Shown here: positions 12,076 to 39,807 of the stretch, one piece after another
Layout: every line of letters begins with the position of its first letter
Position numbering within the stretch: position 1 is the first letter of the stretch
From: Candidatus Korobacter versatilis
GTDB taxonomy: Bacteria; Acidobacteriota; Terriglobia; Terriglobales; Acidobacteriaceae
Direction: 5' to 3'
NCBI GenBank assembly: GCA_016185395.1
Contig: JACPNR010000009.1
Location: 295,843 to 359,842 of the forward strand
Length of the DNA: 64,000 nt
Translations under genes and position numbers: made by a program
Notes under the pieces: model-generated
What the model saw: the letters and a program-made list of their open reading frames with translations, nothing else
Told to the model about the DNA's origin: nothing
The model's database searches: none

Positions 12076-12174
12076 GACGGCGAGCTGTTTCAGCTACCAA
12101 AGGAAGGCGCCGCAAGCTGGTTAGCCTGCGGCGCTTCTTTTCCGTCTACCCTCCCCCAAGGTTCAACGGAAAAC

Positions 12175-13755
12175 TTAGTCTGTTCTGGCTTTTAGAACCA
12201 CTCCTGCAGACTTTCCTGCCGCATCAACGCGTTCAACCCGGCGGCTCGGCTGGTCGCCTATTTCCACCAGGACGCTGCCATCAACCAGGGCGCCGATCAT
12301 CAGAATGGGCTCTTGGCTTCTCCAGACCCAAAGGATCTTTCCATCAAGAACGTTGAATGCGACGATGGCTCTGTCACCCGCAAAGAAGCCTCTATCATCC
12401 TCCCCCAGCAACATGTTCCAAGCCTTGCGGTCCTTCGGTGGTAGCACGGGCATGTGGTACTCATGAACGGCATCGCCATTGACGCGAAAGACTGACCCTC
12501 GCTCCAAAAGCGCCTTACCATCCAGAATGCTTCCGAGCTGCCCACGCGCAGGGATGAGAGCACCGCCGTGCCCATCAGGAATAGGGCTACCCCAGGGATA
12601 AAGCCATTCGGTAGGTCTTTCCCACGTGACCGTCTGGACTTGGCGACGGATCGTCCGCCAAGTGGTCTCCCCATTGTCGTTGACAGACAGCAGTTGCAGA
12701 TGACTGTCCACTGTGAGCTTGGCCGTGAGCGAGGAGATCAATAGCTCAGGTGCACAGCCGGTCGCATCAAAAGTCGCGTTCAACGTATTGATGGGGAGAT
12801 AGACGGTGTCATTCTCGTCAGTGAAGAGACTCCCGTGGCTACTCGGTCCTGACCGCGATACCGAGGAACCGGGAACGCATTTCGCTCCCATTCCCGGCGG
12901 CGGAACGTACCCTACGTGCTGAGTCAGATTAGTAGGTAGTGGGATCTGTACCTTTCGTTCACCTGTCTCCCCATCGAGCGCAGTCAGCACAGGAACATCT
13001 GGATGATCCTCAACGATGTAAAGCAGGTTGCCGTCTGTATATGTGTAAGCCCACCAAGGAGCAGTAGAAACGCGCCATCGCTCAGTACCGTCGTGGCGCA
13101 GTGCTGCAGTCTGGAACGCGCCACTGACCGCGATTGCAACCACTGCCCCTCCAAAATTGTCACCGCAAATTAGCCGCAGGTCCAAAGGTTCACGCGGCGA
13201 AGGCCAAACCCACTTTTGAATGCCGCTCTCATAGAACGCCCGAATGTAACTACCTTTGTCAGTGCCTTCCTGAACATATAGATCCGGCGTTTCCTCACTG
13301 ACCTTCCGCGATTGCAACTGGTTTCTGACTCGAGCCCCCTCGAGCAACGGCGGCATTGATCTCGCGACCGTTCCCGGCGGTAATTCCGGACCAGGGTACA
13401 CAGTCACATTCGCGGTGAACTCACGTCCGTCCACTGTCGCCCTAACCATTCCCTTGCCCGGCGCAAGCGCCGCGACGTACGACGGACCCGAAGCACCCGC
13501 CACCTCGGTGGGATCGACCAATGCGTCACCATACTCCACGCCCACCGCAATCACTCCATCTCCACTTTCGATGGACCAGAGAGCACTCGTAACATCGCGG
13601 CCCTGCCTGTCCAGAACTTGCAGCCGTTGGCGCCCTCCCACGACTAATCCAACCGGGTTCGGCGAAATCAGGTACTCGCTGTCCTGGGCTCTAGAAATAG
13701 CAGACCCACTCAGCAGCCAGAGAGCAATCACAAACAGCTGCAATCGCTTCCTCAC
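12175..13755 (-). CDS. Exported protein, Ig-like (Big_2-like) N-domain plus a probable beta-propeller
   Basis: Signal peptide RKRLQLFVIALWLLSGSAISRAQ. GTG start overlaps the upstream REC stop (GTGA). Repeated DG...W blades seen by eye. Visibly AT-richer than its neighbours. Confidence 0.7.
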   Translation of the reverse strand: MRKRLQLFVIALWLLSGSAISRAQDSEYLISPNPVGLVVGGRQRLQVLDRQGRDVTSALWSIESGDGVIAVGVEYGDALVDPTEVAGASGPSYVAALAPGKGMVRATVDGREFTANVTVYPGPELPPGTVARSMPPLLEGARVRNQLQSRKVSEETPDLYVQEGTDKGSYIRAFYESGIQKWVWPSPREPLDLRLICGDNFGGAVVAIAVSGAFQTAALRHDGTERWRVSTAPWWAYTYTDGNLLYIVEDHPDVPVLTALDGETGERKVQIPLPTNLTQHVGYVPPPGMGAKCVPGSSVSRSGPSSHGSLFTDENDTVYLPINTLNATFDATGCAPELLISSLTAKLTVDSHLQLLSVNDNGETTWRTIRRQVQTVTWERPTEWLYPWGSPIPDGHGGALIPARGQLGSILDGKALLERGSVFRVNGDAVHEYHMPVLPPKDRKAWNMLLGEDDRGFFAGDRAIVAFNVLDGKILWVWRSQEPILMIGALVDGSVLVEIGDQPSRRVERVDAAGKSAGVVLKARTD

Positions 13756-14528
13756 TCCGACGCCTGCAATGTCTTGACGTGCGCTTCGAGCGCGCGCGAG
13801 TACTCGCGCTCGGCCGTGAGCTCTGACTGGAGCTTCTTCACCAACGACTCCAGCCGCATGATCTCGTTCTTCAGTTTGGCGGCGTCCATGGTCGCAGTGG
13901 CGGTAGGGCGCACCGGCATGGGTGGCGCCACGTGAGCAGGCGCGGGCGCCGCAGCGGCAGCGGCCGGTGCGGCCATGGGAGCAGCAACCGGGCGCGGCGC
14001 GGGCGGCACATAAGCCGGCTGCGCCGGAGCCGGCCGCATCGCCGACGCCGGCCTCGGCGCCGGGTGACTGGCGGAAGCGAAGATGCTGCTGAGCGCGGCG
14101 GAAGCGGCTTCCGGCGGCGGCACGGCCTGTACCGGCGCGCCGGGATACAGCAGATGCTTCACGCGCGTGATCAGGTCCTGCGGCTGGAACGGTTTGCGGA
14201 TGAGCTCGTCCGCTTTCACCGCGAAGGCTTTTTCGGCGACCGCGCGATTCACCACGCCGGACATCAGGATCACGGGCGTCTTGCCCAGCACCGGATGCTG
14301 CTTGATGTACTGGCAGACCTCGTAGCCGTCCTTATCGGGCATGATGACGTCGGTGATGACGATGGACGGCCGTTCCTGCTCGATCATGGCGAGCGCCGAG
14401 GCGGCGTCGTTGCACGCCACCACGTTGATGTTCTCGCGGCGAAACGCGATCTTGATGACCTCGCGCATCGTCGCCGAGTCATCGATGAAATAGATCGTTG
14501 GGGTGGCGCCCTGCGCCAAGTCGCTCAT
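13752..14528 (-). CDS. Response regulator receiver with a Pro/Ala-rich linker and a C-terminal coiled coil
   Basis: Canonical REC residues (FIDDS, IVITDVIMPDKDG, LMSG, IRKPF). The tail KLKNEIMRLESLVKKLQSELTAERE is heptad-like. Confidence 0.85.
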   Translation of the reverse strand: MSDLAQGATPTIYFIDDSATMREVIKIAFRRENINVVACNDAASALAMIEQERPSIVITDVIMPDKDGYEVCQYIKQHPVLGKTPVILMSGVVNRAVAEKAFAVKADELIRKPFQPQDLITRVKHLLYPGAPVQAVPPPEAASAALSSIFASASHPAPRPASAMRPAPAQPAYVPPAPRPVAAPMAAPAAAAAAPAPAHVAPPMPVRPTATATMDAAKLKNEIMRLESLVKKLQSELTAEREYSRALEAHVKTLQASE

Positions 14529-15307
14529 TGCGGACCTCCTCCAGCCACGTCGTGCTCGCCCTCATCTACCTCGCGCAGTGCGTCGAGCATCAGCTCGGTG
14601 GCCGAACGCAGCACGGTCCGGGTTGCGGCCGTCGCGCCCGGGACGAACTTGTACACGCCCACTTCACTGTTGTTGCAGTTCTTCACGATGTGGATCACGG
14701 CGTCGTCACCGATCATGTCGCCGGCCTCGGCGTGCGAGACGTCGCCGAGGTCGAAGAAGATGATGCCGTCGAGCGAGCCGGCATTCACGTGCAGCGCGCC
14801 CGTCTGCCGCGAGTGGTTGAGCATCTGCACCACGCCCGGCAGGTCGAGGTGCGAGAGCGAGCCGGAGAGCGCCGTGTCCGACGCGCCCAGCATCTGCGTG
14901 GGCTGGAAGCCTTCTTCGTGCGAACGCAGGAAGCTGCGCACGTGCGTGGCGATGGAATCCGGCCCGACGCGGCGGTCGATGTAGTCATCGCATCCGGCGC
15001 GGAACGCTTCCATCAGCGCCTGGTCGCCGCCGTCGCCCATCGCGAGGATGGGGATGTGCGCCGTCTTGATGTCGGAGTGCAGCAGCTTCGGCAGCTCGTA
15101 CGCTCCCATCTCGCGCAGGTTGATGGCGCACAGGATGGCGATCGGCGTGTCCCATTCGAGCGAGGTGAGCGCAAACGCCGACTGCGTGGCGTGCGTCACC
15201 TCGAAGCCCTCTTTTTTCAGCGCCTCGGTCAGCCGCTTGGCAAAGAACACGTTGGCGTCGATCACCAGGATCTTGGGAAGGCCCGGCGCTGTTCCGGCTG
15301 CGCTCAT
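14525..15307 (-). CDS. Degenerate receiver domain fused to a DUF4388-like domain
   Basis: REC-like fold, but AILCAINLREMG occupies the place of the phospho-Asp strand and DYIDRR the place of DYxxKP. The C-terminal part LSGSLSHLDLPGVVQMLNHSRQTGALHV..GIIFFDLGDV matches the DUF4388 pattern. Confidence 0.75.
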   Translation of the reverse strand: MSAAGTAPGLPKILVIDANVFFAKRLTEALKKEGFEVTHATQSAFALTSLEWDTPIAILCAINLREMGAYELPKLLHSDIKTAHIPILAMGDGGDQALMEAFRAGCDDYIDRRVGPDSIATHVRSFLRSHEEGFQPTQMLGASDTALSGSLSHLDLPGVVQMLNHSRQTGALHVNAGSLDGIIFFDLGDVSHAEAGDMIGDDAVIHIVKNCNNSEVGVYKFVPGATAATRTVLRSATELMLDALREVDEGEHDVAGGGPQ

Positions 15308-15729
15308 GCCGCCACCCCCGATCCGATCAGCCGCTCGAGGTCCACGACCTCGATGATCTCTTTGTCGAGCGCGAGCAGGCCGATCACGTGCTTGGGCAGC
15401 TTCCCTGCCGGCGGCAGCAGCTCGGCCGTCGTGAGCTCACACTCGCCGGACACGGGGATGGCGGTCCACTCGCTGCCGTCCGAGAACTTGCGCGTGGCGA
15501 TGAGGAAGAACTTGCGCGGCGGCGCATCCGGCCCCACGAGCACAGGCGCGACGTCGCACACGGGGATGATGTGCCCGCGGCGGACCAGCACGCCGGTGAG
15601 CAGCTTCGACGTGTGCGGGAAATGCTGCTCGCGGTCGGGATGCGCCAGCTCCGTCACCGACGCAGCCGGCAGCGCGAAGCGCTTCTTCCCGATGGGAAAC
15701 AGCACGAACGAATTGGGACGCGACGTCAT
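15304..15729 (-). CDS. cheW: CheW-like coupling protein
   Basis: 141 aa from ATG 15729 (MTSRPNSFVLFPIGKKRFALPAASV...), a CheW-like fold pattern. The 324-aa track ORF is an upstream extension running through the neighbouring gene. Confidence 0.8.
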   Translation of the reverse strand: MTSRPNSFVLFPIGKKRFALPAASVTELAHPDREQHFPHTSKLLTGVLVRRGHIIPVCDVAPVLVGPDAPPRKFFLIATRKFSDGSEWTAIPVSGECELTTAELLPPAGKLPKHVIGLLALDKEIIEVVDLERLIGSGVAA

Positions 15730-16238
15730 GCGGTGGCCGCTCCCCTTTTCGCTTCTTCGGCTCCCGCCACAGCCGCTTGCAGCACCGTGAACTCCGCCTT
15801 CGACATGAACGCCGCCGGGTCGATCACCGGCACCACGCGCTCCTCGATCATGGCCAGCCCGCGATACCACTGCCGCTCTTCCCCTTGGAACGCGCGCGGC
15901 AGGGCGTGCAGCGAACCGATCTCGATGATGCGCTCGGTGTGGTCCACCAGCACCGCGGCTGCCGAATCGCGCAGCACCAGCAGGCGCGTGCCCTTCGAGG
16001 GGAACAGCCGGAAGTGCAGGTTCGAATCCACCACGAAGTACTTCTTGCGGTCGCGGTCGAGCACGTGCTTGAACTTGCCGAGACGCGGCGTGGCCGCTCC
16101 CGCAGGCAGCGGACGGATGCCATCGAGGTTGCGGATCTCTTCCACGGCGTGCGCGGCGATCGCGAAGGTGTAGCTGCCCACGCCGAAAAGGATCATCGCC
16201 TCGCTCTTCCCTCTTGGCTTCTTCTCGGTGCGCCTCAC
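15726..16238 (-). CDS. cheW: CheW-like coupling protein (second paralogue)
   Basis: ILFGVGSYTFAIAAHAVEEI... is CheW-like. GTGA overlap with the cheB stop and ATGA overlap with the next cheW. Confidence 0.75.
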   Translation of the reverse strand: MRRTEKKPRGKSEAMILFGVGSYTFAIAAHAVEEIRNLDGIRPLPAGAATPRLGKFKHVLDRDRKKYFVVDSNLHFRLFPSKGTRLLVLRDSAAAVLVDHTERIIEIGSLHALPRAFQGEERQWYRGLAMIEERVVPVIDPAAFMSKAEFTVLQAAVAGAEEAKRGAATA

Positions 16239-17422
16239 AGGGCACCGACCCTTGCTGCGCCGTAGACATAGAGCACACGTTTTTCGAGCGCCGGAAAGAT
16301 GTTCTCGATGCCGAGCACCTGGTCCACCGCGCCGGTCTTGATGGCCTCGGCGTTCATGCCGAAGATGACGGAGGTGGCTTCGTCTTGCGCGATGACGTGT
16401 CCGCCCTGGTCCTTGATGATCTGTACGCCGCGTGACGAGTCATTGCCCATGCCGGTCAACACGACGCCGATGGACATCGGCCCGGCAAATTGCGCGACCG
16501 TCTCCATCGTCACGTCCGCGCACGGGCGGTACCCGGAGATGCGTGGGCCGTCGTCGAGCGTGATGCGACCCGTCTGCGTGACGCGGAGGTGGTGCGAGCC
16601 CGGACAGACGTAGAGCACGCCCGGCTGCAGCAGCTCGCCCTGCTCGGCTTCTTTCACCTTGATCTGCGCGATCTCCGCGAGCTGCGTGGAGAACTGCGAG
16701 GTGAACGTTCCCGGCATGTGCTGCACCAGGATGACCGCGCCGGCAAAGCCTGCCGGGAAACGCGGGATGAAGTTCATCAGCGTCTGCGGACCGCCGGTCG
16801 AGGCGGCGACTACGACAACCGGGAATTTTCCATTGCCACGCGTCGCGGTAGGCGCTGGAGCAGCCGCAGGCGCGGCCTGCTTCGCCATCGCCGGTGCAGC
16901 GGCGGCAGCGCCACTGGCGCGCGCGGCCACCGGAGGCGGCGCGGGCTCGGTACGCGGCGCCGAGGTCGCGATCTCTGCCCCAAGCTTGGTGCGGACGGCT
17001 GTGCGGACCACCCGGACTTTCGACGCCAGCCGCAGCTTCCGCACCAGCTCTTCGCGGACGCTGTTCATGTCGAGGTCGATGCCGCTCGAAGGTTTGGCGA
17101 CAAAGTCGATGGCGCCGAGTTCCAGCGCCTTGAGCGTGATGTCCGCGCCATCGCGCGATTCCGAACTTACGATCACGATCGGTTTGGGCTGCTTCGACAT
17201 GATGATCTCGGTCGCCTGCAAGCCGTCCACGTGCGGCATGTTGATGTCCATCGTCAGCACGTCGGGATTGAGCTGCTCCGTCTTCTCCACCGCGTCTTTG
17301 CCGTCGCGCGCTTCGCCGCACACTTCCATCGACGGGTCCGCGCTGATGATGCTCTGCAGCACCTTGCGCATGAACGCTGAGTCGTCCACGATCAATACCC
17401 GGATTCGCTTGTCGAACGCCAT
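16235..17422 (-). CDS. cheB: Chemotaxis response regulator protein-glutamate methylesterase with a long Ala/Pro linker
   Basis: REC (VLIVDDS, DVLTMDINMP). Methylesterase motifs ASTGGPQ, VQHMP, GMGNDS. Confidence 0.92.
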   Translation of the reverse strand: MAFDKRIRVLIVDDSAFMRKVLQSIISADPSMEVCGEARDGKDAVEKTEQLNPDVLTMDINMPHVDGLQATEIIMSKQPKPIVIVSSESRDGADITLKALELGAIDFVAKPSSGIDLDMNSVREELVRKLRLASKVRVVRTAVRTKLGAEIATSAPRTEPAPPPVAARASGAAAAAPAMAKQAAPAAAPAPTATRGNGKFPVVVVAASTGGPQTLMNFIPRFPAGFAGAVILVQHMPGTFTSQFSTQLAEIAQIKVKEAEQGELLQPGVLYVCPGSHHLRVTQTGRITLDDGPRISGYRPCADVTMETVAQFAGPMSIGVVLTGMGNDSSRGVQIIKDQGGHVIAQDEATSVIFGMNAEAIKTGAVDQVLGIENIFPALEKRVLYVYGAARVGAL

Positions 17423-23940: not shown

Positions 23941-24624
23941 CTACGAGCCGGTCGCGGCGCGGTGAGACTGCGGCTTCGTCTCACGATGAGACTCCTTCTC
24001 AGCGAACTTCAGTTCGCTCTCCAACGACGAGAACCGCTGCATGATCTCGTGCATCCGCAAGGCCATCGAATGCATGGTCTCCACCTGCTCGCGGACGTCT
24101 GCGGTCAACGCCCCTGGCTCGAGCAGCAACAGCTCGGCATTGCCCAGCACCGAGGTCAGCGCGTTGTTCATCCCGTGCCGTTGCTCCAGCATGTAGCGCC
24201 CGAGCGTCGCGTCACGACGGTCTTTCGCCGCACTTTCCTCAGCTCGCTTCGCCCGAGCCGAGGCTTCCGCATGGCGAAGCGCCTCGATGGATAACAGGAT
24301 AAGCGCGTCGAGCCAGCCATCGTGTGGCGGCAGCACAAGCAATTTGGGATGACTATTGCGCACCGAGGTCGCCGATTGCGAATCCGACGGGACGAAGATC
24401 GTGGGACAGCCGGCGGCGTCCAGTGAATCGAGCACCATGGCAAGCCTGCCGTTGCGGACACCACCCACCAGCGCAAGGTCGCACGGCGCCGTCTGCGTGC
24501 CCTTCCACAGCTCGCTGCCGACCAGCGTGAAGGCGGGCACTTTGCGCTCCGCCTGCCAGCGCCCCATGACGTTGCGTGAAAAGTCCGCATCGTCGGCGAT
24601 GATCAGTACCGTCTCCTGGTTCAC
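23941..24624 (-). CDS. Receiver-like domain fused to a HisKA/DHp-like helix pair, with no ATPase domain
   Basis: 227 aa from GTG 24624 (GTGA overlap with the upstream stop). VLIIADD and CDLALVGG are receiver-like. The H-box-like EQRHGMNNALTSVLGNAELLLLEP is followed only by a short helix. The 328-aa track ORF is an upstream extension. Confidence 0.7.
   Translation of the reverse strand: MNQETVLIIADDADFSRNVMGRWQAERKVPAFTLVGSELWKGTQTAPCDLALVGGVRNGRLAMVLDSLDAAGCPTIFVPSDSQSATSVRNSHPKLLVLPPHDGWLDALILLSIEALRHAEASARAKRAEESAAKDRRDATLGRYMLEQRHGMNNALTSVLGNAELLLLEPGALTADVREQVETMHSMALRMHEIMQRFSSLESELKFAEKESHRETKPQSHRAATGS
23978..23992. promoter_or_regulatory. Palindrome GTCTCA-CGA-TGAGAC, candidate enhancer-binding-protein site (UAS) for the operon-1 sigma-54 promoter
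   Basis: Exact 6+6 inverted repeat read directly. Its centre is about 127 bp upstream of the -24 GG at 23857-23858. An extra TGAGAC half-site lies at 23963-23968. The arms are identical to the palindrome at 32089-32103. Confidence 0.55.
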
Positions 24625-26207
24625 TGCGCGCTCCGTTGTGGGGGTTTGGGGCCGCTTTCCAGTTCTTCCATCAGTCCGATGAGCCGTCGAGCGCTCGCCG
24701 AGAGGTTCACTGCGCCATCGATGTTCTTCTGTTCTTTCGCCTGCGCGATCTGTGCCTGCAACGCAGCCGCTTCCGCGTGCGCCGCCGCGAGTACGGGAGC
24801 GACCTCCACCTGCGTACCCTGCCTGCGCTCTTCCGCCATCCGCGAGAGCAACGCGCGCGCCCCCACGGCACGCTGCAACGCGTCGGAGACATCGTCGCCG
24901 CCTTGCACGAACGCGGCGACCTCCCACGAGGAGAGCATCAGTTTGTGTCCCGCGACCACGACCGCGGTGACGGCTGTCCCGGTCTTCGCGCTGTCCTTCA
25001 ATAGCTGCTCGGCGATTTGCTCGACGTATCCATCCACGTCAGCCGGAGCGGGGGTCGGAGCGGGCTTTCCGCCGATCGCGATCGGCTTCGGCGCGGCCTT
25101 CGCCAGAGTGAGCTTGGGCTCCGCCTTGTACGCCGCAACCATCTCTTTCTGCACAGCTGCCGCGCTCGGTGCGCCCGGCATAGCCTTCGCTTCTTTGGCC
25201 AGGGGTACTGCAGCCGGAACTTTGGCCACCGGAGCGATGACCTTAGGAGCCGGCGGCACCTCGACCGGGACTGGTTCCTCGACCGCGGCTGCGACCGGTC
25301 CCGGCTGGGCGACCTGCGGCGGAGGCGCTGCCAGTGCTGCTTCCAGCGCCGTACGCAATTGGATCAACTGCTGGAATGGCTGGCCGGAACTGTAGGCCGC
25401 CCGAAACGTGGTCTTCCAGTCATGACAGAAGAGGCGCAGATGTTCCCCGCTCTCGCTCTTCCCCAGGCCGGCGGCACTGCAATCGAAGCTTCTCTGTCCA
25501 CGCTGCTCGAGTTCGTGCAGCGCAAAACGAATGGCATGCAAGTCGTTGTGGATCAAGCGCACGAACGTGCCGCGCACGAGGAAGTTGAAGCGCGTGAAGG
25601 TGAGCATCGCTCCCGAACCAAAGAACATGTCGCCGGCATCGGTCTTGAGTTTCCGCGCGTGCGCCAGGATGCCGCGCTCGAGCAGGTCACGCAGCGTCTC
25701 GCAACCGCGCAGGTTCGCGATCACCGTATCGAGCCCACCCAGCCACGCCGGAGCCTCCGGGATGGACTCGCCCAACACCGGCTCGAGCACTTCCGCCATG
25801 TCATCCAGCGTCGGCTCGCCTTGGTGCATCTTCACCGGCGCGCAATGAAAGAAATACTGAGCGAGCAGGAAGTCGGCCTTGTCGCGGTCCGCCTCCGTGC
25901 GTTTTTCCTTCGCTAGGATTCGACCGATCAGCGCGCGCAGTACCGGCTCGCTACCCAGTTCGGAGGTCTGCAGCACTTGTCGCAGTTGCCACACCTCGAT
26001 CTTCGCGTCCGCCTCAGCAAACCATTTCTCGATGCGCTCGATCGCTTCCGGCTCGGAGCGGTCGACCGGATACTCTAGATCGCGCGAGGGCTCGATCGCG
26101 ATCCCATACTGACGCACAACGGCCGCGTACACGGGATACAGCTGCCGTGCGCTCCGCCACTGCGCGGCGATCTCGGTGAGTTGTGCCGGTGCGGCTGCCG
26201 TCGTCAT
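24621..26207 (-). CDS. Hypothetical protein: globular N-domain, Ala/Pro-rich spacer and a C-terminal coiled-coil region
   Basis: 528-aa ORF coupled by 4-nt overlaps to both neighbours. No family recognised. Confidence 0.7.
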   Translation of the reverse strand: MTTAAAPAQLTEIAAQWRSARQLYPVYAAVVRQYGIAIEPSRDLEYPVDRSEPEAIERIEKWFAEADAKIEVWQLRQVLQTSELGSEPVLRALIGRILAKEKRTEADRDKADFLLAQYFFHCAPVKMHQGEPTLDDMAEVLEPVLGESIPEAPAWLGGLDTVIANLRGCETLRDLLERGILAHARKLKTDAGDMFFGSGAMLTFTRFNFLVRGTFVRLIHNDLHAIRFALHELEQRGQRSFDCSAAGLGKSESGEHLRLFCHDWKTTFRAAYSSGQPFQQLIQLRTALEAALAAPPPQVAQPGPVAAAVEEPVPVEVPPAPKVIAPVAKVPAAVPLAKEAKAMPGAPSAAAVQKEMVAAYKAEPKLTLAKAAPKPIAIGGKPAPTPAPADVDGYVEQIAEQLLKDSAKTGTAVTAVVVAGHKLMLSSWEVAAFVQGGDDVSDALQRAVGARALLSRMAEERRQGTQVEVAPVLAAAHAEAAALQAQIAQAKEQKNIDGAVNLSASARRLIGLMEELESGPKPPQRSAQ

Positions 26208-26554
26208 GCCTGGATGATCCAGTTCGCCGGTTTCGCGGTGAAGCGCGCCGCGATGGCGATGTGTCCGTTGTGATATTGCAGCGCGACGATGGAAGCCTCC
26301 GCCCGCAGGCTGCCATCCGCATTCTCCAATCGAAGATGGTCATCGAATTCGAGCGGCAGGCTTGAGGAGAAGAGCACCTCCGCCGCCGTCCCGTACTCGA
26401 TCAATGTCTGCTCGGAGAGTTCCCGCCCACGGCCGCCCGTTCCGGTAACGCGCACCGGTATCCGGACCGCGACCGCTTCCGGAAAGAACTGCGCCAGTCT
26501 GGAGACGGAGCCTTCGCTAGCAGTCTGTGACGCGACCGCGACTTGCTGTGTCAC
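26204..26554 (-). CDS. Hypothetical small protein, possibly a PilZ-like beta-barrel without the RxxxR motif
   Basis: 116 aa. RIPVRVTG...LIEYGTAAEVLFSS...LRLE...AEASIVALQYHNGHIAIAARF resembles PilZ strand order. No RxxxR or DxSxxG motif seen. ATGA overlap with the next gene. Confidence 0.55.
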   Translation of the reverse strand: MTQQVAVASQTASEGSVSRLAQFFPEAVAVRIPVRVTGTGGRGRELSEQTLIEYGTAAEVLFSSSLPLEFDDHLRLENADGSLRAEASIVALQYHNGHIAIAARFTAKPANWIIQA

Positions 26555-26796: not shown

Positions 26797-26811
26797 GTCT
26801 CAGGATGAAAC
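26797..26811. promoter_or_regulatory. Near-palindrome GTCTCA-GGA-TGAAAC, candidate UAS for the 3-gene operon promoter
   Basis: 11 of 12 arm positions match the GTCTCA/TGAGAC palindrome. A second GTCTCA lies at 26813-26818. The centre is about 83 bp upstream of the -24 GG at 26720-26721. Confidence 0.45.
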
Positions 26812-26822
26812 AGTCTCACGCA

Positions 26823-31600: not shown

Positions 31601-32037
31601 GCCCCGAAACGCCCCGCCATGGGATAGCGGTCCGCGTCGAGCTCGTTGACGTAAACGGTGCGCCGGCTGGTGACCGCCTCATTCGCGACCGCGCTCTCGT
31701 CGAGCTGCAACGACGCCTGCAGGAACTCCGCCACCATCCGTCCTTCCGCATCGACGGCGTCCAGGCGTTCGTTCTCTTTCAGGTCCCAGTAGTAAACCCC
31801 GCTGACCTCGAACAGGTCTTTCGCCGACCGGCAAAAAAGACGGATGAGCGCGCTGAAGTCTGCGCCATCGGCGACCGCAGCGGAAAATTGCAGCAGCGTC
31901 TGCTGAAACACAGACGCCGACGTCGAAACAGGCTCTGCCGTCGATCTTCCTGAGACACTCATTGTTTGCGTTGAGACGGGTGTGCGGTTGCCTTCGGGGG
32001 AGAAGGTGACGTTATGCGGAATCTCAAAATGAGTCAA
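28645..32037 (-). CDS. Cytoplasmic multi-sensor histidine kinase (several GAF and PAS domains, HisKA, HATPase_c)
   Basis: H-box AHEVNNPLTAILG, N/G boxes NNAYDA, DNGSGI and GTGLGLSICYGIV. No hydrophobic TM segment seen. TTG start as in the track; an alternative ATG at 31962 is possible. Confidence 0.9.
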   Translation of the reverse strand: MTHFEIPHNVTFSPEGNRTPVSTQTMSVSGRSTAEPVSTSASVFQQTLLQFSAAVADGADFSALIRLFCRSAKDLFEVSGVYYWDLKENERLDAVDAEGRMVAEFLQASLQLDESAVANEAVTSRRTVYVNELDADRYPMAGRFGARAMLAAPLVVAGEVIGVGVLLHDSDPNFFTDDLAAKATILAAQLGTMAEIARLRESSLEERERAVHLVELTHALQSGLDAGKIMATLVHRVCALFGAASVILYSCEKDGLQTKAVAAGAVPEPLAIAHAETLAHAAAAKLIATTASELPAAIRFDAALHGGVVAFGDAVAVRIRTARREGVLLVCFPPDGKVSGRDFRLLGSLANIAGLILANAELYSTTEQHRNRAENLVKLGLELSSSLNLPEFVKKFTLRAAEMLDAHAAALVLAQGPSLETVLLHDEREVTDRALPRRLSQALVELGHAQRAPVSAGSAAELLGAGLAASLGWNDACIVRLAAASEEFLGYLCLAELRRPLSPADYELLRAISGHISVALENSRLFTRIAQSNKQWAEIFDAISDFIVVHDESNRVLRVNRSLAEFIGVRPPELIGVGMRALVSITAEANALPCPFCRSGMETADEYIHPVLERTYLVSTSRMRGALNEGTQTIHVLKDITDRREVERRYRELFDNTQEGIFFSSPEGRFIEVNDALVRMLGYSSRQELLEIDVPTRLYLQPEDRQRFRQLIEERGMVRNYQEVLRRKDGTLVHTLQNSFAVRDAGGKVTQYRGMILDITELKTFQSQLLHERDFNSKILNNTQSMILVSDTAGLISYANRRCFEAGGFKESELLGNRLLDLVEPSRRNNLTDALESVMSGQQVDNLELPIRRGSEKVGHFSMNLSPMRDEQGNVSSIVVVMTDITDAALLNAKLMHAEKMAAVGQLVSGVAHEVNNPLTAILGFADLLVQQEDIPESAKKDLAVIVQESQRTRQIVQNLLSFARQMPAERKAIDINAILRRTLQLRAYDLSSHGIDVVERCQPDLPAIVGDAHQLQQVFLNIINNAYDAVRETGRRGAIEISTSASNGMADIAFSDNGSGIAQPDRIFDPFFTTKEVGKGTGLGLSICYGIVHEHGGEITCQNNGERPGATFIVRLPLSAGKAAAGGQA

Positions 32038-32088
32038 GAAATAACGCCAGACGTTAATTAGTTGATAAACATTCCGAACATTCGTCAG

Positions 32089-32103
32089 GTCTCACTATGA
32101 GAC
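32089..32103. promoter_or_regulatory. Palindrome GTCTCA-CTA-TGAGAC, candidate UAS in the divergent control region
   Basis: Exact 6+6 inverted repeat. Its centre is about 148 bp upstream of the -24 GG at 32244-32245. Extra TGAGAC half-sites lie at 31951-31956, 31972-31977 and 32128-32133. Confidence 0.55.
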
Positions 32104-32242
32104 AGATGCGGCTAGGTAGGGGGCTGATGAGACTGGTTCTCGCTCCACCGGAGCCCAAAGTGGAGCCGCCATATCCAGTGTAACTTGTTGTAAATATTAG
32201 CATTGGACTTTTATTTCTGTTTCCGTCCGAATGCCTGCAGGG

Positions 32243-32258
32243 TGGCACCGGCATTGCA
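32243..32258 (+). promoter_or_regulatory. Sigma-54 (-24/-12) promoter, perfect consensus
   Basis: TGGCAC-CGGCA-TTGCA read directly. It lies about 40 nt upstream of the GAGGAGGAG Shine-Dalgarno and GTG 32297 of the first gene of chemosensory operon 2. Confidence 0.7.
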
Positions 32259-32296: not shown

Positions 32297-32632
32297 GTGT
32301 CTTTCAGTCGATTTAAAAGTTGGGTCGCGCGTGCTGCGCTGGTCGCAGTGATTGCCGCGAGCGTAACGCCGTCCGCGCTGGCGGACGACCGCAAGATCAA
32401 GTCAGAGGTCAAGCCGGCTTATCCGGAACTCGCGAAAAAAATGAACGTAAGCGGCGCGGTGAAGGTGGAGATCGTTATCACTCCCGCCGGCACGGTGAAG
32501 AGCGCGAAGGCGCTCGGCGGACATCCGCTGCTGATTGAACCCTCGGTCGAGGCCGCCAAGAAGTGCAAGTTCGAACCGGGCAGCGGTGAGACCACGCAAG
32601 TCATGACCTTCAATTTCAAAGCAGCCCAGTAA
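32297..32632 (+). CDS. Small exported TonB C-terminal-domain protein
   Basis: Signal-like [19 protein letters not shown], then [29 protein letters not shown]...FEP, typical of TonB_C. Start moved to GTG 32297, behind a strong SD; the track start is 32231. Confidence 0.75.
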
Positions 32633-32660: not shown

Positions 32661-34655
32661 ATGAACATCGGCAAGAAACTCTTCTACGGATTTGGCGCCA
32701 TTCTCGGATTGCTGCTCCTGCTCTACGGCGTGAGCACCACCGCGCTGTGGCGCGCGGACAGCGCTCGCCGCGCGACCATGACCTCGCTCGACACCATGCG
32801 CGGCATGGAAGACGTCCGCTTGCAGATGATGACCAACCGCCAATACCTGGATAGCTACCTCCTCGCCGGCGTTCCCGGCGAACTGGAGAAGTTCCGCGCC
32901 GGATTGTCCGATCTCCAGAACAAGCTGCGCATCGCCGAGTCCAAGGCCACCGACGAACAGCGCGCCGCGCTCGGCACCGTGCGCAATTCAGAAGCAACCT
33001 GGTTCAGCAGCTACGCTGACCCGCTCATCCAAAAACGCCAGCAGGTGGATTCCGGCAACGCGACCGCCGCTGACCTGCAGATCGCTTTCATTCAGCTTCA
33101 GGAGAAGAACGAGCAACAGCTCACCGCCTCCACGACCGCCCTCGACCAGGTGGAAAAGGTCACGCAGAAGGCCGCGGAGGAGCAACGCGATTCCAGTGAC
33201 ACCACCGCCCGGTTCGCCTACTGGGCGTCGTTCATCTTCATGGTCATCGCCTGCGTGCTTGGCGGTTTCATCGCCATCCGCACCGCGAATTCCATCACCG
33301 AGCCGCTCGGGCGCCTCATCGTCGTTGCCGACCAGATCGGCAACTCCGGCGACCTAGAACACTCCATCGACATCAGCGGTTCCGACGAGATCGGCGAACT
33401 CGCCCGCACCTTCAACAACATGGTCGCGTACCTCAAGGAGATGGCCGCGGTCTCCGAAGCCATCGCCGGCGGCGACCTCTCTGTTCAGGTCGAGCCGCGC
33501 TCGCAGCGCGACACTCTCGCCAACGCCTTCTCGGCCATGACCACCGGCCTGCGCGCGCTCGTGAAGCGCGTGCGTGATAGCGCCGCGCAAGTCGCCAGCG
33601 GCTCCAACCAGGTCGCGGACGCCTCCGATGAATCCGCCAAGATCAGCGTGCACGCCTCCTCGGCCATCGACGAAGTCACCAGCACCATGCACGAGATGTC
33701 CATCAACGTGCAGAACATGGTGAAGAACACGCAGACGCAGGCCTCGAGCGTTTCCGAGACCTCCGCCTCCATCGACCAGATGGTCGCCTCCATCCAGCGC
33801 GTGGCCGATACCGCGAAAGTCCTGCTCGACATCTCGCAGCGTTCGCGCGAAGAGGTGCAGAGCGGCATCACCACCATGGAGAAAGCGACGGACGGACTCA
33901 CCCGCATCAACGGCTCCATCCGCTCGTCTGGCGAGATCATCGGCGCTCTCGGTCAACGCGCCGACGACATCGGCAAGATCATCGAGGTCATCGACGACCT
34001 CGCCGAGCAGACCAACTTGCTGGCGCTGAACGCCGCCATCGAAGCCGCCCGCGCCGGCGAGCACGGTCTCGGCTTCGCCGTCGTTGCGGACGAAGTCCGC
34101 AAGCTGGCGGAAAAATCAGCGTCGTCCACCAAGGAGATCAGCGAACTCATCCAGTCCATCCAGAAGGAGGCCCGCAAGGCGGTCGAGAACATGGAGAAGT
34201 CGACCACCATCGTGAACGAGGGCCTCACGCTCGGGTCCGACCTCTCCACCGCGCTGCGCAAGATCTCGAACGTCGTCACCGAGGTCTACAAGTTCGCGCA
34301 GGAGATCGGCGCCGCCACCAACGAGCAATCGCACGGTTCGGCGCAGATCGCCAAGGCCACCACGCGGCTCAACGAGATCACCCACGAGATCAATTCCTCC
34401 GTCGAGGAGCAGGCCTCGGGCGCGCAGGCCGTGGTCAAGGCCATGGAAAAGATGCGCGAACTGGTGCAGCAATCCACTTCCGGCTCCACCGAGTTGGCCG
34501 CTTCGGCGGAGCAGATGTCGAAGATGTCGCGCATGCTGCTCGAAGCCATGGACCGCTTCGTCATCGAGTCGAACGGCGACGCACGCCACGCGATGGCGCA
34601 GCGCCGCCACGGACACGAACCGGGCCGCATGGCGGCCGCGGCGGCGAGGAACTAG
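32661..34655 (+). CDS. Methyl-accepting chemotaxis protein (four-helix-bundle type sensor, HAMP, signalling domain)
   Basis: Two TM segments flank a periplasmic region of about 160 aa. Signalling hairpin [32 protein letters not shown]. Confidence 0.92.
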
Positions 34656-34664
34656 GGCAGACGC

Positions 34665-35156
34665 ATGATCACCAAGGACCTGCACATCGTCGGGTTCCGC
34701 ATCGGGCGCGAGACGTTTGGCGTCCCCATCGAGCTGGTGCACGAGATCGTGCGCGTGCCCGAGATCACTGCCGTGCCCGATTCGCCCGAGTACATCGAGG
34801 GCGTCATCAACCTGCGCGGCAAGATCATCTCCGTCGTCGATCTGCGCAAGCGCTTTGGCGAGCGCGAGATCACCTGGACGAAGAAGAACCGCATCCTCGT
34901 CGCCGAGTTGGAAGATAAGAAGGTCGGGCTCATCGTCGACGCGGCTTCGGAAGTCATCAAGCTCCCCCGCACCGATGTCGACAATCCGCCCAACGTCTTC
35001 GAGGAAGGCGAGTTGAACTACGTGACCGGCGTGGGCAAGCTCAACGGCCGGCTCATCATCCTCATCGAGTTGGCGAAGATCCTGCAGCGCGGCGAATTGA
35101 AACGGCTGGGCGATCTGGCGGAAGCGGCGCAATCGGCCGCATCCGCGGGCTCGTAA
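34665..35156 (+). CDS. cheW: Chemotaxis coupling protein CheW
   Basis: HIVGFRIGRETFGVPIELVHEIVRVPEIT...INLRGKIISVVDLRKRFG. Confidence 0.92.
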   Translation: MITKDLHIVGFRIGRETFGVPIELVHEIVRVPEITAVPDSPEYIEGVINLRGKIISVVDLRKRFGEREITWTKKNRILVAELEDKKVGLIVDAASEVIKLPRTDVDNPPNVFEEGELNYVTGVGKLNGRLIILIELAKILQRGELKRLGDLAEAAQSAASAGS

Positions 35157-35196
35157 TAGCGGACCCGTATCAGGACGCGGCGGCACCTTTGTCGCG

Positions 35197-36126
35197 ATGC
35201 AGCACTGGCGAGAGGCGATGGCGACGACACCGAGTCTTCAGATCCAACTGACCGAACCCGAACTCAAGCTGCTGCAGACCCTGATCTATCAGGAATGCGG
35301 CATGTATTTCGACGAGCGCCGCGTCCACTTCCTGCAGGACCGCTTGCAGCGCCGCCTCAAGGCCACCGGCCTCGAGAGTTTCTATCGCTATTACCAGCTC
35401 CTCACCAGCCGCGAAGGCAAGAGCGAACTCTCCGCGCTGCTCGAGAACCTCACCGTCAACGAGACCAGCTTCTTCCGCAACAAGCCGCAGCTCGACCTCT
35501 TCCACAAGAACACGCTCGAAGAGATCCTGCAGCGCAAGACCGAGCGGCGCGATTGGAGCCTGCGGGTGTGGAGCGCCGGATGCTCGACCGGCCAGGAACC
35601 CTACACGCTCGCCATGCTCATCTGCGACGCGCTCGCCTACTACTACCTGCGCAACCCGCTTCCCTTCGAGATGCCGAGCCCAAAGCCGCTCATCCCGCCG
35701 CCGTGGAGAGTGGAGATCCTCGCTTCCGACATCAACTACTCCGTCCTCCGCGCGGCGCAAGAGGCCGTCTATCCCGAGAACCACATGGAGCCGGTGGATT
35801 ACACCTATCGCCTGCGCTACTTCGATAAGGGCGGCGACAAGTATTCCATCAAGAAAGCGGTCAAGGACCTCGTCCACTTCGACTTCCACAATCTGAAGAC
35901 GGAGTTCTTGCCGCAGCGCAACGACGTCATCTTCTGCCGCAATGTGATGATCTATTTCGACGAAGCCGAGCAGAAGCGCCTGGTCGACAAGTTCTATCGC
36001 TGCCTGAACCGCGAGGGCTATCTCTTCGTCGGGCACGCGGAGAGCCTCTTCGGCCTCACCGACAAGTTCAAAATGATCCACGTGAACAACGGCACCGCAT
36101 ACCAGCGCATCGAGGCTGCCCCGTGA
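35197..36126 (+). CDS. cheR: Chemotaxis protein methyltransferase
   Basis: TSFFRN segment and SAM-binding LRVWSAGCSTGQEPYTLAM. An alternative start at ATG 35218 is possible. Confidence 0.9.
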   Translation: MQHWREAMATTPSLQIQLTEPELKLLQTLIYQECGMYFDERRVHFLQDRLQRRLKATGLESFYRYYQLLTSREGKSELSALLENLTVNETSFFRNKPQLDLFHKNTLEEILQRKTERRDWSLRVWSAGCSTGQEPYTLAMLICDALAYYYLRNPLPFEMPSPKPLIPPPWRVEILASDINYSVLRAAQEAVYPENHMEPVDYTYRLRYFDKGGDKYSIKKAVKDLVHFDFHNLKTEFLPQRNDVIFCRNVMIYFDEAEQKRLVDKFYRCLNREGYLFVGHAESLFGLTDKFKMIHVNNGTAYQRIEAAP

Positions 36127-38192
36127 GTTTCTTCTCGGAAGACAAGGCGAGCGAGCTCAAAGAGATCTTCTTCGAAAGCGCGCAGGAACTCCTGCAGACG
36201 CTGAACGAGGAAGCGCTCGCCCTGGAGAAGAACCCCGCCGACGCCGAGACCGTGCGCAGCGTCCGCCGCACCGTGCACACGCTCAAGGGCGATTCCGCCG
36301 CTTGCGGTTATCGCGAGCTGAGCGAGCTCGCGCACGAACTAGAAGACGTGCTCACGCCCGAGCTCGCGCAGAGCGCCCAGAACGCGCGCATCCCGGAAGT
36401 AGTACTCGCCGCTGCGGACACCTTCCAGTCCATGCTCGCCGCGTATCGCAACAACCTGCAGCCGCCTTCGGGCGACGCCCTGCGCCAGCACGTCCGTAAG
36501 CTCACCAGCGCGCCCGCTGCTCCCGAACAGGCAAGGCTCGCTCCCACCTTCGCGTGGTCGGAATACGAGCAGGTCGTGATCGCGCACTCATTGGATAAGG
36601 GCAACAACATCTTCCACGTCGCGCTGCAGATCGACCGTGACTGCCCGATGCGCGCCGCTGCGATGCAGATGATCCGCAACGTCGTCGGCGATTTCGGCAC
36701 CGTGCTTGCCATCCATCCCGAGGACAACACGCCCGCTGAGCAGATCGACGTGGTCGAGATGGCCATCGCCAGCAAGCACGACGAGCAATGGATCGCGAAG
36801 AAGTCGCACATCCCTGCCGTCATCAAGGATGTCGTCGTAGTGCGCGCCGGGGGCGCGGCCGAGACGGCGCCGGCAAAGACGGTCCTCGAGATCGCCGACA
36901 CGCTCACTCAGCCCGTGCTCACCGCCGTCCCTGCGCCCGCCGAATCCAAAGACGAGCCCGCGGAAAAGACCGCCAGCAAGAGCGTGGTCTCCGAGAACAG
37001 CCTGCGCGTGGACGCCGACCGCATCGACGACGTCCTCAACCTCGTCGGCGAGCTCATCATCGGCAAGTCGATGCTCCTGCAAACGATGAGCGAGTTCGAC
37101 AAGCGCTTCGCCAAGGACCCGCTGCGCGGCAAGTTCGCCGACGCCATGGCATTCCAGGCGCGCGTCCTCACCGACCTGCAGAAATCGGTGATGAAGATCC
37201 GCATGGTGCCGGTCGAGCAGCTCTTCCGCCGCGTGCCGCGCGTCATCCGCGACGTCGCCAAGAGCGCCGGCAAGGAAGTCGCGCTCCAGATCAGCGGGCA
37301 GGACACCGACCTCGACAAGAGCATCCTCGATACGCTCGCCGAGCCGCTCACTCATCTCGTGCGCAACGCGGTCGACCACGGACTCGAAGCGCCGCAGGAG
37401 CGCGTCGCGCTCGGCAAGCCCGCGGCCGGGACCATTCGCCTCAACGCCTTCCACCAGGGCAATCAGGTCGTCATCGAAGTCGGCGACGACGGACGCGGCA
37501 TCGATCGCGCCAAGGTCGTCGCGAAAGCCATCGAGCGCGGCATCGTCACCGCGGATGAAGCCGGCCGCATGAGTGAAGGCGAGCAGTTCGCGCTTATCTT
37601 TAATCCCGGCCTCTCGACCGCGGCGCAGGTCACCGAAGTCTCCGGACGCGGCGTTGGCATGGACGTAGTCAAGACCGTGCTCGACCGGCTGAAAGGTTCC
37701 ATCATCATCCTCAGCAAGGTCGGCGAAGGCACCACGTTCCAGTTGAAGGTACCGCTCACGCTCGCCATCATCAAAGCGTTGCTGTTCCGCGTGGCCGACA
37801 AACTTTACGCCGTCCCGCTCGGTTCCGTCCTCGAGATCACGCGCGCCCGCGAGAGCGAGATCCATCGCGTGGACAACCACGAGGTGGTGCAGTTGCGCGA
37901 CCAGGTGCTCACGCTCGTCCGCGTCGCCAAGCTCAGCAAGCGCAAGGCGTCGCCCGGCAAACAGTTGTTCATCGTCATCATCGCCATCGGCGACCGCAAG
38001 TTCGGACTCGTGGTCGACCGCCTCATCGGCGAAGAAGAATTGGTCATCAAGGCGCTCGACGATCATCTCGTCGCCACCGAACTGGTGTCCGGCGCCTCCA
38101 TCCTCGGCGATGGAACCGTCGTCCTCATCCTGAACGTGCAGGCCGTCGTCGGACGCGTCGGCCGCGAGGGCGCGAAGGGAGCGCACGCATGA
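36123..38192 (+). CDS. cheA: Chemotaxis histidine kinase CheA (single Hpt)
   Basis: Hpt RRTVHTLKGDSAACG. HLVRNAVDHG, DDGRGID and GRGVGMD boxes. C-terminal CheW-like domain. Confidence 0.95.
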   Translation: MSFFSEDKASELKEIFFESAQELLQTLNEEALALEKNPADAETVRSVRRTVHTLKGDSAACGYRELSELAHELEDVLTPELAQSAQNARIPEVVLAAADTFQSMLAAYRNNLQPPSGDALRQHVRKLTSAPAAPEQARLAPTFAWSEYEQVVIAHSLDKGNNIFHVALQIDRDCPMRAAAMQMIRNVVGDFGTVLAIHPEDNTPAEQIDVVEMAIASKHDEQWIAKKSHIPAVIKDVVVVRAGGAAETAPAKTVLEIADTLTQPVLTAVPAPAESKDEPAEKTASKSVVSENSLRVDADRIDDVLNLVGELIIGKSMLLQTMSEFDKRFAKDPLRGKFADAMAFQARVLTDLQKSVMKIRMVPVEQLFRRVPRVIRDVAKSAGKEVALQISGQDTDLDKSILDTLAEPLTHLVRNAVDHGLEAPQERVALGKPAAGTIRLNAFHQGNQVVIEVGDDGRGIDRAKVVAKAIERGIVTADEAGRMSEGEQFALIFNPGLSTAAQVTEVSGRGVGMDVVKTVLDRLKGSIIILSKVGEGTTFQLKVPLTLAIIKALLFRVADKLYAVPLGSVLEITRARESEIHRVDNHEVVQLRDQVLTLVRVAKLSKRKASPGKQLFIVIIAIGDRKFGLVVDRLIGEEELVIKALDDHLVATELVSGASILGDGTVVLILNVQAVVGRVGREGAKGAHA

Positions 38193-39271: not shown

Positions 39272-39360
39272 TGGTTAAGGTGGAAAAGCATCCGGGATAA
39301 GGTGGGGCGCGGCGAGCGCCCGGTGGCAAGATAAGCAGCACGTGGTTCAGGAGACTGGTC

Positions 39361-39807
39361 ATGGAACAATTCGCGGCTCTGCTTCGCAGCAAAGACAAGC
39401 AGCCGGTACGTTATCTCGTGGTCGACGATTCCGTGTTCGCCCGCAAGAACATCACCAAGATGATCGAGACCTTCGGCGGACAAGTGGCGGGTGAGGCCGG
39501 CGACGGCTGCACTGCTATCACCGAATACGACCGCACCCGTCCCGACGTCGTGCTCATGGACATCACCATGCCGCAGATGGAAGGCATCGAGGCGGCCGAG
39601 CGTATCGTGCGCAATCATCCCGAAGCCCGCGTCATCATGGTCTCCTCCGTCGGCTACCAGGAGAACATCGTGACCGCGCTGCAAAAGGGCGCGCGCCACT
39701 TCGTGCAGAAGCCGGTGAAGCCGGAAGTGCTCTACGAGGTGATCAAATACGTGCTCGGTGAAGACGCCGTCGCGGCCGCCGGCGCCGCCGCAGGAGAAAA
39801 GCAATGA
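39361..39807 (+). CDS. cheY: Chemotaxis response regulator CheY
   Basis: YLVVDDS, VVLMDITMPQMEG, MVSS, VQKP. Confidence 0.9.
   Translation: MEQFAALLRSKDKQPVRYLVVDDSVFARKNITKMIETFGGQVAGEAGDGCTAITEYDRTRPDVVLMDITMPQMEGIEAAERIVRNHPEARVIMVSSVGYQENIVTALQKGARHFVQKPVKPEVLYEVIKYVLGEDAVAAAGAAAGEKQ

Follow-up and report, generated by a model that had tools for sequence, protein, structure and literature searches.

What do three overlapping genes of mostly unfamiliar sequence contribute when they lie between a two-component system and a cluster of chemosensory genes? The question is raised by a 64,000-nt stretch of DNA from Candidatus Korobacter versatilis (GenBank assembly GCA_016185395.1, contig JACPNR010000009.1, positions 295,843 to 359,842 of the forward strand), which we call the window and whose own numbering, from 1, is used for all positions below. 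Its minus strand carries, from 26554 down to 23941, a unit of three genes that we designate A, B and C. Our answer is that A, B and C are probably accessory proteins of a two-component/chemosensory supercluster, gathered around a family, that of B, which has no known relatives, and that the cis-regulatory logic of the locus is unusually clear. The best explanation of the observations taken as a whole is a sigma-54-dependent operon whose products would form an accessory complex coupling the two signalling systems, and we give it a probability of roughly 0.5. A literature search found no publication describing this module in Acidobacteria.

Gene A (26554-26204, minus strand) has a GTG start and encodes 116 residues, predicted to form a PilZ-fold beta-barrel with degenerate cyclic di-GMP (c-di-GMP) motifs; gene B (26207-24621, minus) has an ATG start and encodes the 528-residue protein without known relatives; and gene C (24624-23941, minus) has a GTG start and encodes 227 residues that appear to comprise a pseudo-receiver and a HisKA-type DHp helix pair. 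Read directly from the sequence, the stop codon of A overlaps the start codon of B as ATGA (26207-26204), and the stop codon of B overlaps the GTG start of C as GTGA (24624-24621). The mechanical list of open reading frames (ORFs) starts gene C at 24927, within gene B; we prefer the start that gives 227 residues because it is preceded by GGAG and because the N-termini of the homologues all coincide there. A preliminary description of this DNA had reported three ORFs of these lengths joined by two 4-nt overlaps, and its coordinates were reproduced; an independent gene call on a Logan contig encoding an identical 528-residue protein gives the same three genes with the same overlaps. Among related loci the 4-nt A-B overlap recurs in 26 of about 58, and the 4-nt B-C overlap in six, the B-C junction elsewhere being mostly a gap of 8-58 nt. 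Neither a sigma-70-like promoter nor a minus-strand terminator was found between the three genes. A-B-C is a real, conserved and tightly linked unit.

To describe the conservation of this linkage we scanned one genome per species, in which more than 516 contigs encode relatives of B, and took 80 loci for analysis. All 80 come from metagenome-assembled genomes, nearly all of them of Terriglobia (Terriglobales, Angelobacter and Acidoferrales). Five contigs (L020, L028, L048, L064 and L070) are labelled Limnocylindrales, Verrucomicrobiia, Saccharimonadales, Udaeobacter or Dormiibacterota, and, carrying as they do a Terriglobia-type cluster, they are probably mis-binned rather than signs of a wider distribution. 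When the window proteins were used as tblastn queries, most of the 80 loci showed the kinase, the receiver and the activator followed by A, B and C and then by CheY, CheW, MCP, CheR and CheA, an order that continues, after this CheA/REC, with CheB, and the stand-alone receiver between kinase and activator is kept in nearly all of them. The placement of a conserved, tightly linked unit between signalling modules, as first proposed from the window alone, is thus borne out by the neighbourhoods of B homologues. Nor did profile searches assign all three proteins to well-known families of unrelated function, which, together with a lack of conserved linkage, the preliminary description had named as the findings that would count against it.

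Seventy-two loci had enough flanking sequence for gene content to be counted. The full set of A, B and C with CheY is present in 47/72; B alone with CheY, the gaps being too small for A or C, in 9/72; B and C with CheY in 5/72; A and B with CheY in 2/72; A, a truncated B consisting of the N-domain only, and C, without CheY, CheW, MCP or CheA, in 5/72; A, B and C with no adjacent CheY match in 2/72; and some other gene content in 2/72. Gene B is the sole member of the unit present in every locus, while A and/or C are absent in 17 of the 72. B is therefore the core of the unit, and A and C are its frequent but dispensable partners. B is thus not always accompanied by its two small partners and by che genes: the full set with cheY is limited to the 47 loci, and five loci have no che core at all. 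Those five (L062, L065, L069, L074 and L079; about 7600-10800 in L062) form a variant locus type in which a TPR/peptidase-like gene on the opposite strand comes after the kinase, receiver and activator and is itself followed by A, a truncated B of 349-384 residues, C, an orphan CheR-like gene and uvrB. They look like one clade and should probably be counted as one evolutionary event. Since A, truncated B and C remain beside the kinase-receiver-activator module where the che core is missing, the link of the module to the two-component system is no less close than its link to the chemosensory genes.

For the promoters, we scanned the equivalent intergenic regions of the related loci with a regular expression for sigma-54-type -24/-12 elements, requiring GG at -24, GC at -12 and exact spacing. 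The promoter before gene A, P1, is TGGCTGTTGCCGTGCA (26722-26707, minus), and 64 of 65 related loci have such an element at the corresponding place, compared with 9.5% of random 300-nt windows from the same loci; the suggestion that A-B-C has a sigma-54-type promoter of its own is well supported by this comparison. The element before cheY, P2, is TGGCTGCGCAATTGCT (23859-23844, minus), with equivalents in 52/66 loci against the same 9.5% background, mostly 53-59 nt before cheY. A third element matching the sigma-54 consensus, P3, is TGGCACCGGCATTGCA (32243-32258, plus); it precedes a gene for a secreted TonB_C-like protein of 111 residues (32297-32632, plus), which sits between this promoter and a second che cluster. 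An Rfam scan of the leader of about 140 nt and of the intergenic regions gave no match, and hence no known riboswitch.

All three promoters share an upstream sequence. A search for over-represented hexamers returned TGAGAC/GTCTCA, which lies upstream of P1 in 65/65 loci and upstream of P2 in 53/53, as against 9% of random 200-nt windows. At P1 the sites occupy fixed positions across loci, near -109/-97 and near -88/-78; in the window they are two direct copies of TGAGAC (26818-26813 and 26802-26797, minus), read from the sequence, and the first of these forms no more than the imperfect palindrome TGAGACtGTTTCA (26818-26806). The palindrome that had been proposed upstream of A-B-C is thus correct in pointing to conserved sites, but these are direct copies of TGAGAC, the first being palindromic in an imperfect form alone. 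At P2 the window has a palindrome, GTCTCAtcgTGAGAC (23992-23978, minus), and a GTCTCA (23968-23963, minus), both within the 3' end of gene C. The palindrome stands 124-133 nt upstream of the P2 element, and across loci TGAGAC is found at about -124 in 51 of 53, with flanking GTCTCA at -133 and -109 in about half; the idea that a palindrome in the 3' end of the unit serves the next operon is borne out by these distances. At P3 the arrangement is repeated on the plus strand, with the palindrome GTCTCActaTGAGAC (32089-32103) and a TGAGAC (32128-32133).

In the 1.18 Mb of sequence from the loci, 0.07 occurrences of the perfect 15-bp palindrome GTCTCA-N3-TGAGAC would be expected, and there are 53. 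In the window TGAGAC is rarer than expected, with 16 copies compared with 34 from shuffles, and 10 of the 16 fall in three clusters (23963-23992, 26797-26818 and 31951-32133), each upstream of a sigma-54 element. Loci without gene C keep the P2 sites, with their distance unchanged, suggesting that the DNA element itself is the selected feature. In the window the P2 palindrome occupies the codons for E-S-H-R-E-T, residues 211-216 of C, and S212 and E215 are near-invariant in an otherwise variable C-terminal tail, a pattern that probably reflects a constraint imposed by the palindrome on the coding sequence at the level of DNA. Two of the ten clustered copies, at 31951 and 31972, lie within the 5' end given for the kinase ORF, but the TTG start of that ORF may be placed too far upstream.

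The simplest reading of these shared sites is that one activator drives all three promoters, and the NtrC-type protein encoded next to P1 is the obvious candidate. Both che clusters may thus belong to one regulon. We think it quite probable that a kinase-receiver-activator module controls A-B-C and both che operons in this way, through sigma-54 promoters and GTCTCA/TGAGAC sites, and of all the parts of our explanation this is the one in which we have most confidence.

Gene B is the member of the unit about which databases have least to say. Its product was predicted by AlphaFold2 to have two folded domains, each with predicted local distance difference test (pLDDT) values above 90, joined by a linker with values below 50 that is presumed from this to be disordered. 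Alignment and model together place an all-helical N-domain at residues 1-295 (26207-25323, minus), a variable linker rich in Pro and Ala at 25322-25044 (minus), and a C-domain at residues 389-528 (25043-24621, minus). The N-domain is rich in invariant Arg, Asp and Lys, among them R18, R21, R108-D109-K110, R206, R212 and R217; the linker is very variable in length and composition; and conservation in the C-domain spans about residues 389-520 and includes the motifs SSWEVAAF, ALQRAV and KNIDAAVNLAA. A word-indexed search returned about 480 homologues, and an exhaustive profile search of 1.84 billion representatives returned 812 clusters at 50% identity. The same architecture is seen in all B homologues among the 150 best matches listed, none of which has a Pfam domain, and a Pfam search of eight unusually long members found no fused domains and merely longer, coiled-coil-like linkers.

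We found nothing for B in Pfam, NCBIfam or PADLOC. The best sequence-profile match in the PDB has an E-value of 1.2, and Foldseek searches with the model gave a best E-value of 0.35 with template modelling (TM) scores of at most 0.15 against the PDB, and a best E-value of 0.13 against viral models. The claim that the 528-residue protein has no recognisable family has therefore withstood Pfam, NCBIfam, PDB profiles and structural comparison alike. Two other identities were considered and discarded: the possibility that B is a paralogue of the 526-residue protein at the end of the che cluster was rejected on comparison of the two, and a defence-system reading found neither a PADLOC match nor a phage-fold match to support it.

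Every locus with the che core retains B at full length, C-domain included, and the C-domain is missing in the five loci without that core; this loss of the domain exactly where the che core is lost suggests that the C-domain addresses che proteins. With two folded domains, a flexible tether and no recognisable catalytic signature, B fits best as a scaffold or coupler. The fuller proposal, that B founds a Terriglobia-restricted family with a fold absent among solved structures and acts as a physical coupler, its N-domain docking C and A and its tethered C-domain docking the chemosensory array, strikes us as an unlikely one to be correct in all its parts.

Gene C is less obscure. The DHp helix pair occupies about residues 135-205, with the codon for His150 at 24177-24175 (minus), and the Pfam HisKA model matches residues 149-201 at 27.6 bits against a cut-off of 26.9. 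In 31 sequences R149, H150, N153, N154, T157 and S158 are invariant; the residue after the histidine (H+1) is S, G, N or T in 31/31 and never acidic, and the residue at H+4 is Asn in 31/31. The protein ends 77 residues past the histidine with no HATPase_c match, and its homologues are all 225-255 residues long. The best PDB sequence matches to the DHp portion are RetS and a histidine kinase, with E-values of about 0.06, and the H-box shares 41% identity over 29 residues with that of the adjacent kinase, both reading H-x-x-N-N-x-L-T. Willett and Kirby (PMC3510030) found that in HisKA kinases the acidic residue at H+1 is needed only for kinase activity, and the Thr or Asn at H+4 only for phosphatase activity. 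Because it lacks an acidic H+1 and keeps Asn at H+4, C would have the signature of a DHp domain competent as a phosphatase and incompetent as a kinase (PMC3510030), and on these residues we read C as a protein that acts by dephosphorylation or phosphotransfer rather than as a kinase.

The N-terminus of C (about residues 1-115) is harder to classify. There is no Pfam Response_reg match; aligned by hhalign with nine receiver domains from the window, strands 1-4 fall in register, in a weak match with a probability of 34% and an E-value of 4e-4, and the column of the phosphorylated Asp is an invariant Gly54. It is thus at best a pseudo-receiver. Of the description of C as a receiver-like domain with a DHp pair, then, the DHp pair stands on the Pfam match, while the receiver-like part comes down to this weak alignment, with the phospho-accepting Asp replaced. 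The accompanying statement that none of the three proteins is a standard che or two-component part fails for C, in which a HisKA pair passes the Pfam cut-off with an invariant His and Asn at H+4.

Gene A is recognisable by its predicted fold rather than its sequence. Its AlphaFold2 model (pLDDT 82) shows a barrel of six strands and a helix at the N-terminus, and the top Foldseek matches in the PDB are the PilZ domains of BcsA, Alg44, MotI, PP4397 and PA0012, with E-values of 1e-3 to 1e-2 and TM scores of 0.5-0.55; barrels resembling flavin reductases are also among the matches, with much worse root-mean-square deviations. No Pfam PilZ (PF07238) match was found for A or for any of 31 homologues, even at E-values up to 10, and A has no match of any kind in Pfam, in NCBIfam or among PDB sequence profiles. 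The preliminary description called A a PilZ-like protein without RxxxR, and the structural comparison agrees with its first half, but A does carry R31-x-x-x-R35, within predicted strand 1, with R31 in 31/31 sequences and R35 in 27/31. What it lacks is the (D/N)xSxxG motif, in place of which the 31 sequences have an invariant E53-x-G55-T56-x-x-E59. L66-P67-L68-E69-F70 are further invariant residues of A. The model, then, makes A PilZ-like in fold and not a canonical member of the PilZ family, and from the state of these motifs the binding of c-di-GMP by A is doubtful.

A scheme that would accommodate these observations runs as follows. The kinase, single receiver and activator would turn on the sigma-54-dependent A-B-C operon through the TGAGAC/GTCTCA sites, and the same sites would bring under similar control the promoter of the neighbouring che operon and that of the second che cluster, both of which they also precede. 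The products of A-B-C would form an accessory signalling complex that couples the two-component system to a chemosensory pathway resembling Pil-Chp. In this complex B would be a two-domain scaffold, its N-domain partnering A and C, and its C-domain, on the flexible Pro/Ala tether, contacting a component of the che cluster. C might be a HisKA dimer without a catalytic domain, controlled by its pseudo-receiver, that removes or shuttles phosphoryl groups on a receiver, with the single receiver or the activator the most likely target, giving negative feedback, and a CheY-type receiver a less likely one. A could serve as a PilZ-fold adaptor. That the three proteins form an accessory signalling module of some kind we hold to be somewhat better than an even proposition, whereas the specific roles given here to A, B and C are tentative. 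The original suggestion was of an accessory signalling or output module, and of its two halves accessory signalling is the better supported and output the more conjectural.

A number of observations weigh against this scheme. The joint loss of the B C-domain and the che core probably represents one evolutionary event in one clade, and the many invariant Arg, Asp and Lys residues of B would suit a ligand-binding or enzymatic role as well. Other sigma-54 activators of the genome could bind the TGAGAC sites. The resemblance between the H-boxes of C and the adjacent kinase consists mostly of residues generic to this HisKA subtype, and the receiver-like fold of C depends on an alignment to which hhalign assigns a probability of one third. 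Finally, several lineages dispense with A or with C and nine loci have B alone, so there is no obligate triad.

Other explanations can be built from the same observations. The unit might have no direct role in the che pathway at all, B, with or without A and C, being instead an anti-activator or co-sensor of the adjacent NtrC-type activator and a member of that activator's own sigma-54 regulon, in the manner of PspA-PspF or NifL-NifA. The place of B is always immediately past the activator, and the conserved sigma-54 promoter ahead of it has the shared sites; an anti-activator encoded beside its activator is an established pattern in the psp and nif systems; and loci that have lost the che core still have A, truncated B and C next to the kinase-receiver-activator module. 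B nevertheless has no similarity in sequence or fold to PspA, NifL or any solved protein, full-length B with its C-domain accompanies the che core in every locus that has one, and the upstream sites of the che operon lie within the 3' end of gene C and so tie the two units together physically. On balance we judge an explanation by feedback alone unlikely. The view that the three proteins have a function outside signalling, such as a structural or enzymatic one, and are simply co-regulated with their neighbours would take comfort from the want of an identifiable signalling domain in B and from the loss of the canonical c-di-GMP motif in A. It must contend with a position conserved in hundreds of genomes, with the two-component parts of which C is made, with a fold in A that is typical of signalling adaptors, and with the failure of any defence system or phage fold to match, and we regard it as very improbable, the least attractive of those considered here.

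Two further proposals turn on the histidine of C. Cluster 1 has no CheC/CheX/CheZ-type gene, while cluster 2 has CheX, and C lies directly upstream of cheY, keeps the Asn at H+4 and lacks all that kinase activity needs (PMC3510030); C might thus be the missing phosphatase or a phosphate sink of cluster 1, with A and B targeting it to the receptor array or regulating it there. Against this, C is lacking in 11 loci where the che cluster is complete, is present in five that have lost CheY, CheW, MCP and CheA, and has an H-box of the same subtype as the adjacent NtrB-like kinase, so that a CheY phosphatase seems to us distinctly unlikely. Alternatively, C could be a histidine phosphotransferase in a relay of the Spo0B/ChpT kind, passing phosphoryl groups from the kinase by way of the single receiver and His150 of C to the NtrC-type activator. 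This would give a purpose to the stand-alone receiver found between kinase and activator in nearly all loci, and an invariant His in a DHp pair with no ATPase domain is the architecture of such proteins. At least seven loci, though, keep the kinase, single receiver and activator without C, which cannot then be an obligatory step, and C's own promoter would require the phosphorylated activator that C is supposed to produce. An obligatory Spo0B-like relay is ruled out by those loci, and a relay in any form appears to us slightly less probable again than the phosphatase of CheY. The accessory coupling complex remains the explanation that we prefer.

Chemotaxis-like pathways that control non-flagellar outputs are common and poorly understood, and the Acidobacteria, abundant in soil, have seen almost no signalling genetics. 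The locus described here is a defined circuit, with one kinase-receiver-activator module, three sigma-54 promoters sharing a 15-bp palindrome, two che clusters and a conserved accessory operon. If B does couple the two-component system to the array, it would show the two main architectures of bacterial signalling joined in a new manner, and a function would be assigned to a family of roughly 800 sequence clusters. Should B dock C, A and the array together, chemoreceptor activity would directly set the phosphorylation of an NtrC-type activator that in turn transcribes both che operons, a closed loop of transcription and signalling that has not been described for any chemosensory system. C, for its part, would add a natural example of the phosphatase-only HisKA design that mutagenesis of CrdS predicted.

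The neighbouring genes were assigned as follows. The upstream module (32037-26823, minus), recognised by Pfam and by its conservation in tblastn searches, begins with a histidine kinase of 1130 residues with GAF, PAS, HisKA and HATPase domains (32037-28645), followed by the stand-alone receiver of 131-132 residues (28648-28250), whose ATG overlaps the kinase stop codon as ATGA, and by the NtrC-type sigma-54 activator of about 477 residues, with Sigma54_activat and HTH_8 domains and a GAFTGA motif (28256-26823). The activator resembles NtrC/AtoC in NCBIfam and scores under the equivalog cut-offs. A 633-residue ORF listed for the activator was rejected as an over-extension across the separate receiver gene, which lies in another frame; the real start is near 28256. 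Downstream of A-B-C, chemosensory cluster 1 (23778-13752, minus; Pfam and synteny) comprises, in order, CheY, CheW, an MCP with HAMP, CheR, CheA, CheB, a CheW-like protein, a REC-DUF4388 protein, and a REC protein with a coiled coil. Its CheY has 119 residues, with an ATG at 23778, and its CheA has 1022 residues with two Hpt stretches, a CheW domain and a C-terminal receiver by Pfam. NCBIfam gave no named subtype for the che proteins. The second che cluster, which is conventional, runs divergently on the plus strand from 32661 (32661-40301) and consists of MCP, CheW, CheR, CheA, CheB, CheY and CheX; the presence of CheX here and the absence of a CheC/CheX/CheZ-type gene from cluster 1, mentioned above, were both read from the Pfam matches of the window.

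The tail of cluster 1 (11383-16278, minus) holds five further genes. The first two encode the CheW-like protein, of 324 residues, and the REC-DUF4388 (PATAN) protein; the third encodes a protein of 258 residues with a receiver, a Pro/Ala linker and a C-terminal coiled coil, which recalls the architecture of RomR or FrzS; and the last two encode the 526-residue protein, with a weak PQQ_2/BamB-like match, and a 230-residue protein without a family. An ORF of 937 residues on the minus strand (7483-10296), with no Pfam match, overlaps uvrB (9385-11382, plus) and is probably spurious, as is typical of GC-rich DNA.

The locus can be compared with several known systems. In the PspF-PspA system a sigma-54 activator gene adjoins the sigma-54 operon that it controls, and the operon encodes the activator's regulator. 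The activator gene at the Acidobacterial locus likewise adjoins a sigma-54 operon; B, however, is not homologous to PspA, and the activator is of the NtrC type, controlled by phosphorylation and provided with its own kinase. HisKA proteins without kinase activity are also familiar: Spo0B and ChpT are phosphotransferases, and RetS uses its DHp domain to act on GacS. C resembles these in being a DHp pair with a conserved His and no functional kinase module, but where they have an ATPase-like domain at the C-terminus it would have a pseudo-receiver at the N-terminus, and it keeps the Asn at H+4.

For cluster 1 and its companions the likeness is to the Pil-Chp pathway of Pseudomonas, in which the genes are ordered pilH-I-J-K-chpA-B-C and the accessory proteins include PilZ, FimX and FimL. 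The order CheY, CheW, MCP, CheR, CheA (with multiple Hpt domains and a C-terminal receiver), CheB, CheW along 23778-15304 matches this, and in both cases the pathway is accompanied by a helical protein of about 530-560 residues and by a small protein of PilZ fold whose c-di-GMP motifs are degenerate. The Acidobacterial locus differs in that its MCP has only a short periplasmic loop, its accessory genes stand in one sigma-54 operon, B matches none of the solved Hpt-like or FimL structures in fold, and A escapes detection by Pfam PilZ. No pilus genes are present among the Pfam-scanned ORFs of the window, where the one hint of a pilus is the REC-DUF4388 (PATAN) protein of cluster 1; in Synechocystis, regulators of the PATAN type bind to the motor of the pilus (bioRxiv 10.1101/2021.06.11.447907).

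The Che3 cluster of Rhodospirillum centenum includes CheS3, a protein with receiver and histidine-kinase-type parts that modulates phosphate flow in a che-like cluster (PMC3868531). C similarly pairs receiver-type and histidine-kinase-type parts at such a cluster, although CheS3 is a hybrid kinase with all its parts and a receiver that can be phosphorylated, whereas C has a putative pseudo-receiver and no ATPase domain. The nearest analogue at the level of the whole system is the Che3 system of Myxococcus xanthus with CrdS and CrdA (PMC3147164), in which a che cluster is wired to a two-component system with an NtrC-type sigma-54 activator; the likeness is one of system design. The M. xanthus system has no counterpart of A, B or C and no CheY, whereas the Acidobacterial locus has cheY genes; here, moreover, A-B-C separates the kinase and activator from the che genes, and a sigma-54 promoter with the shared upstream sites also precedes the che operon. 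In M. xanthus the che pathway and the two-component system jointly set the phosphorylation of the activator, which has more than one partner, one of them acting as a phosphatase (PMC3147164).

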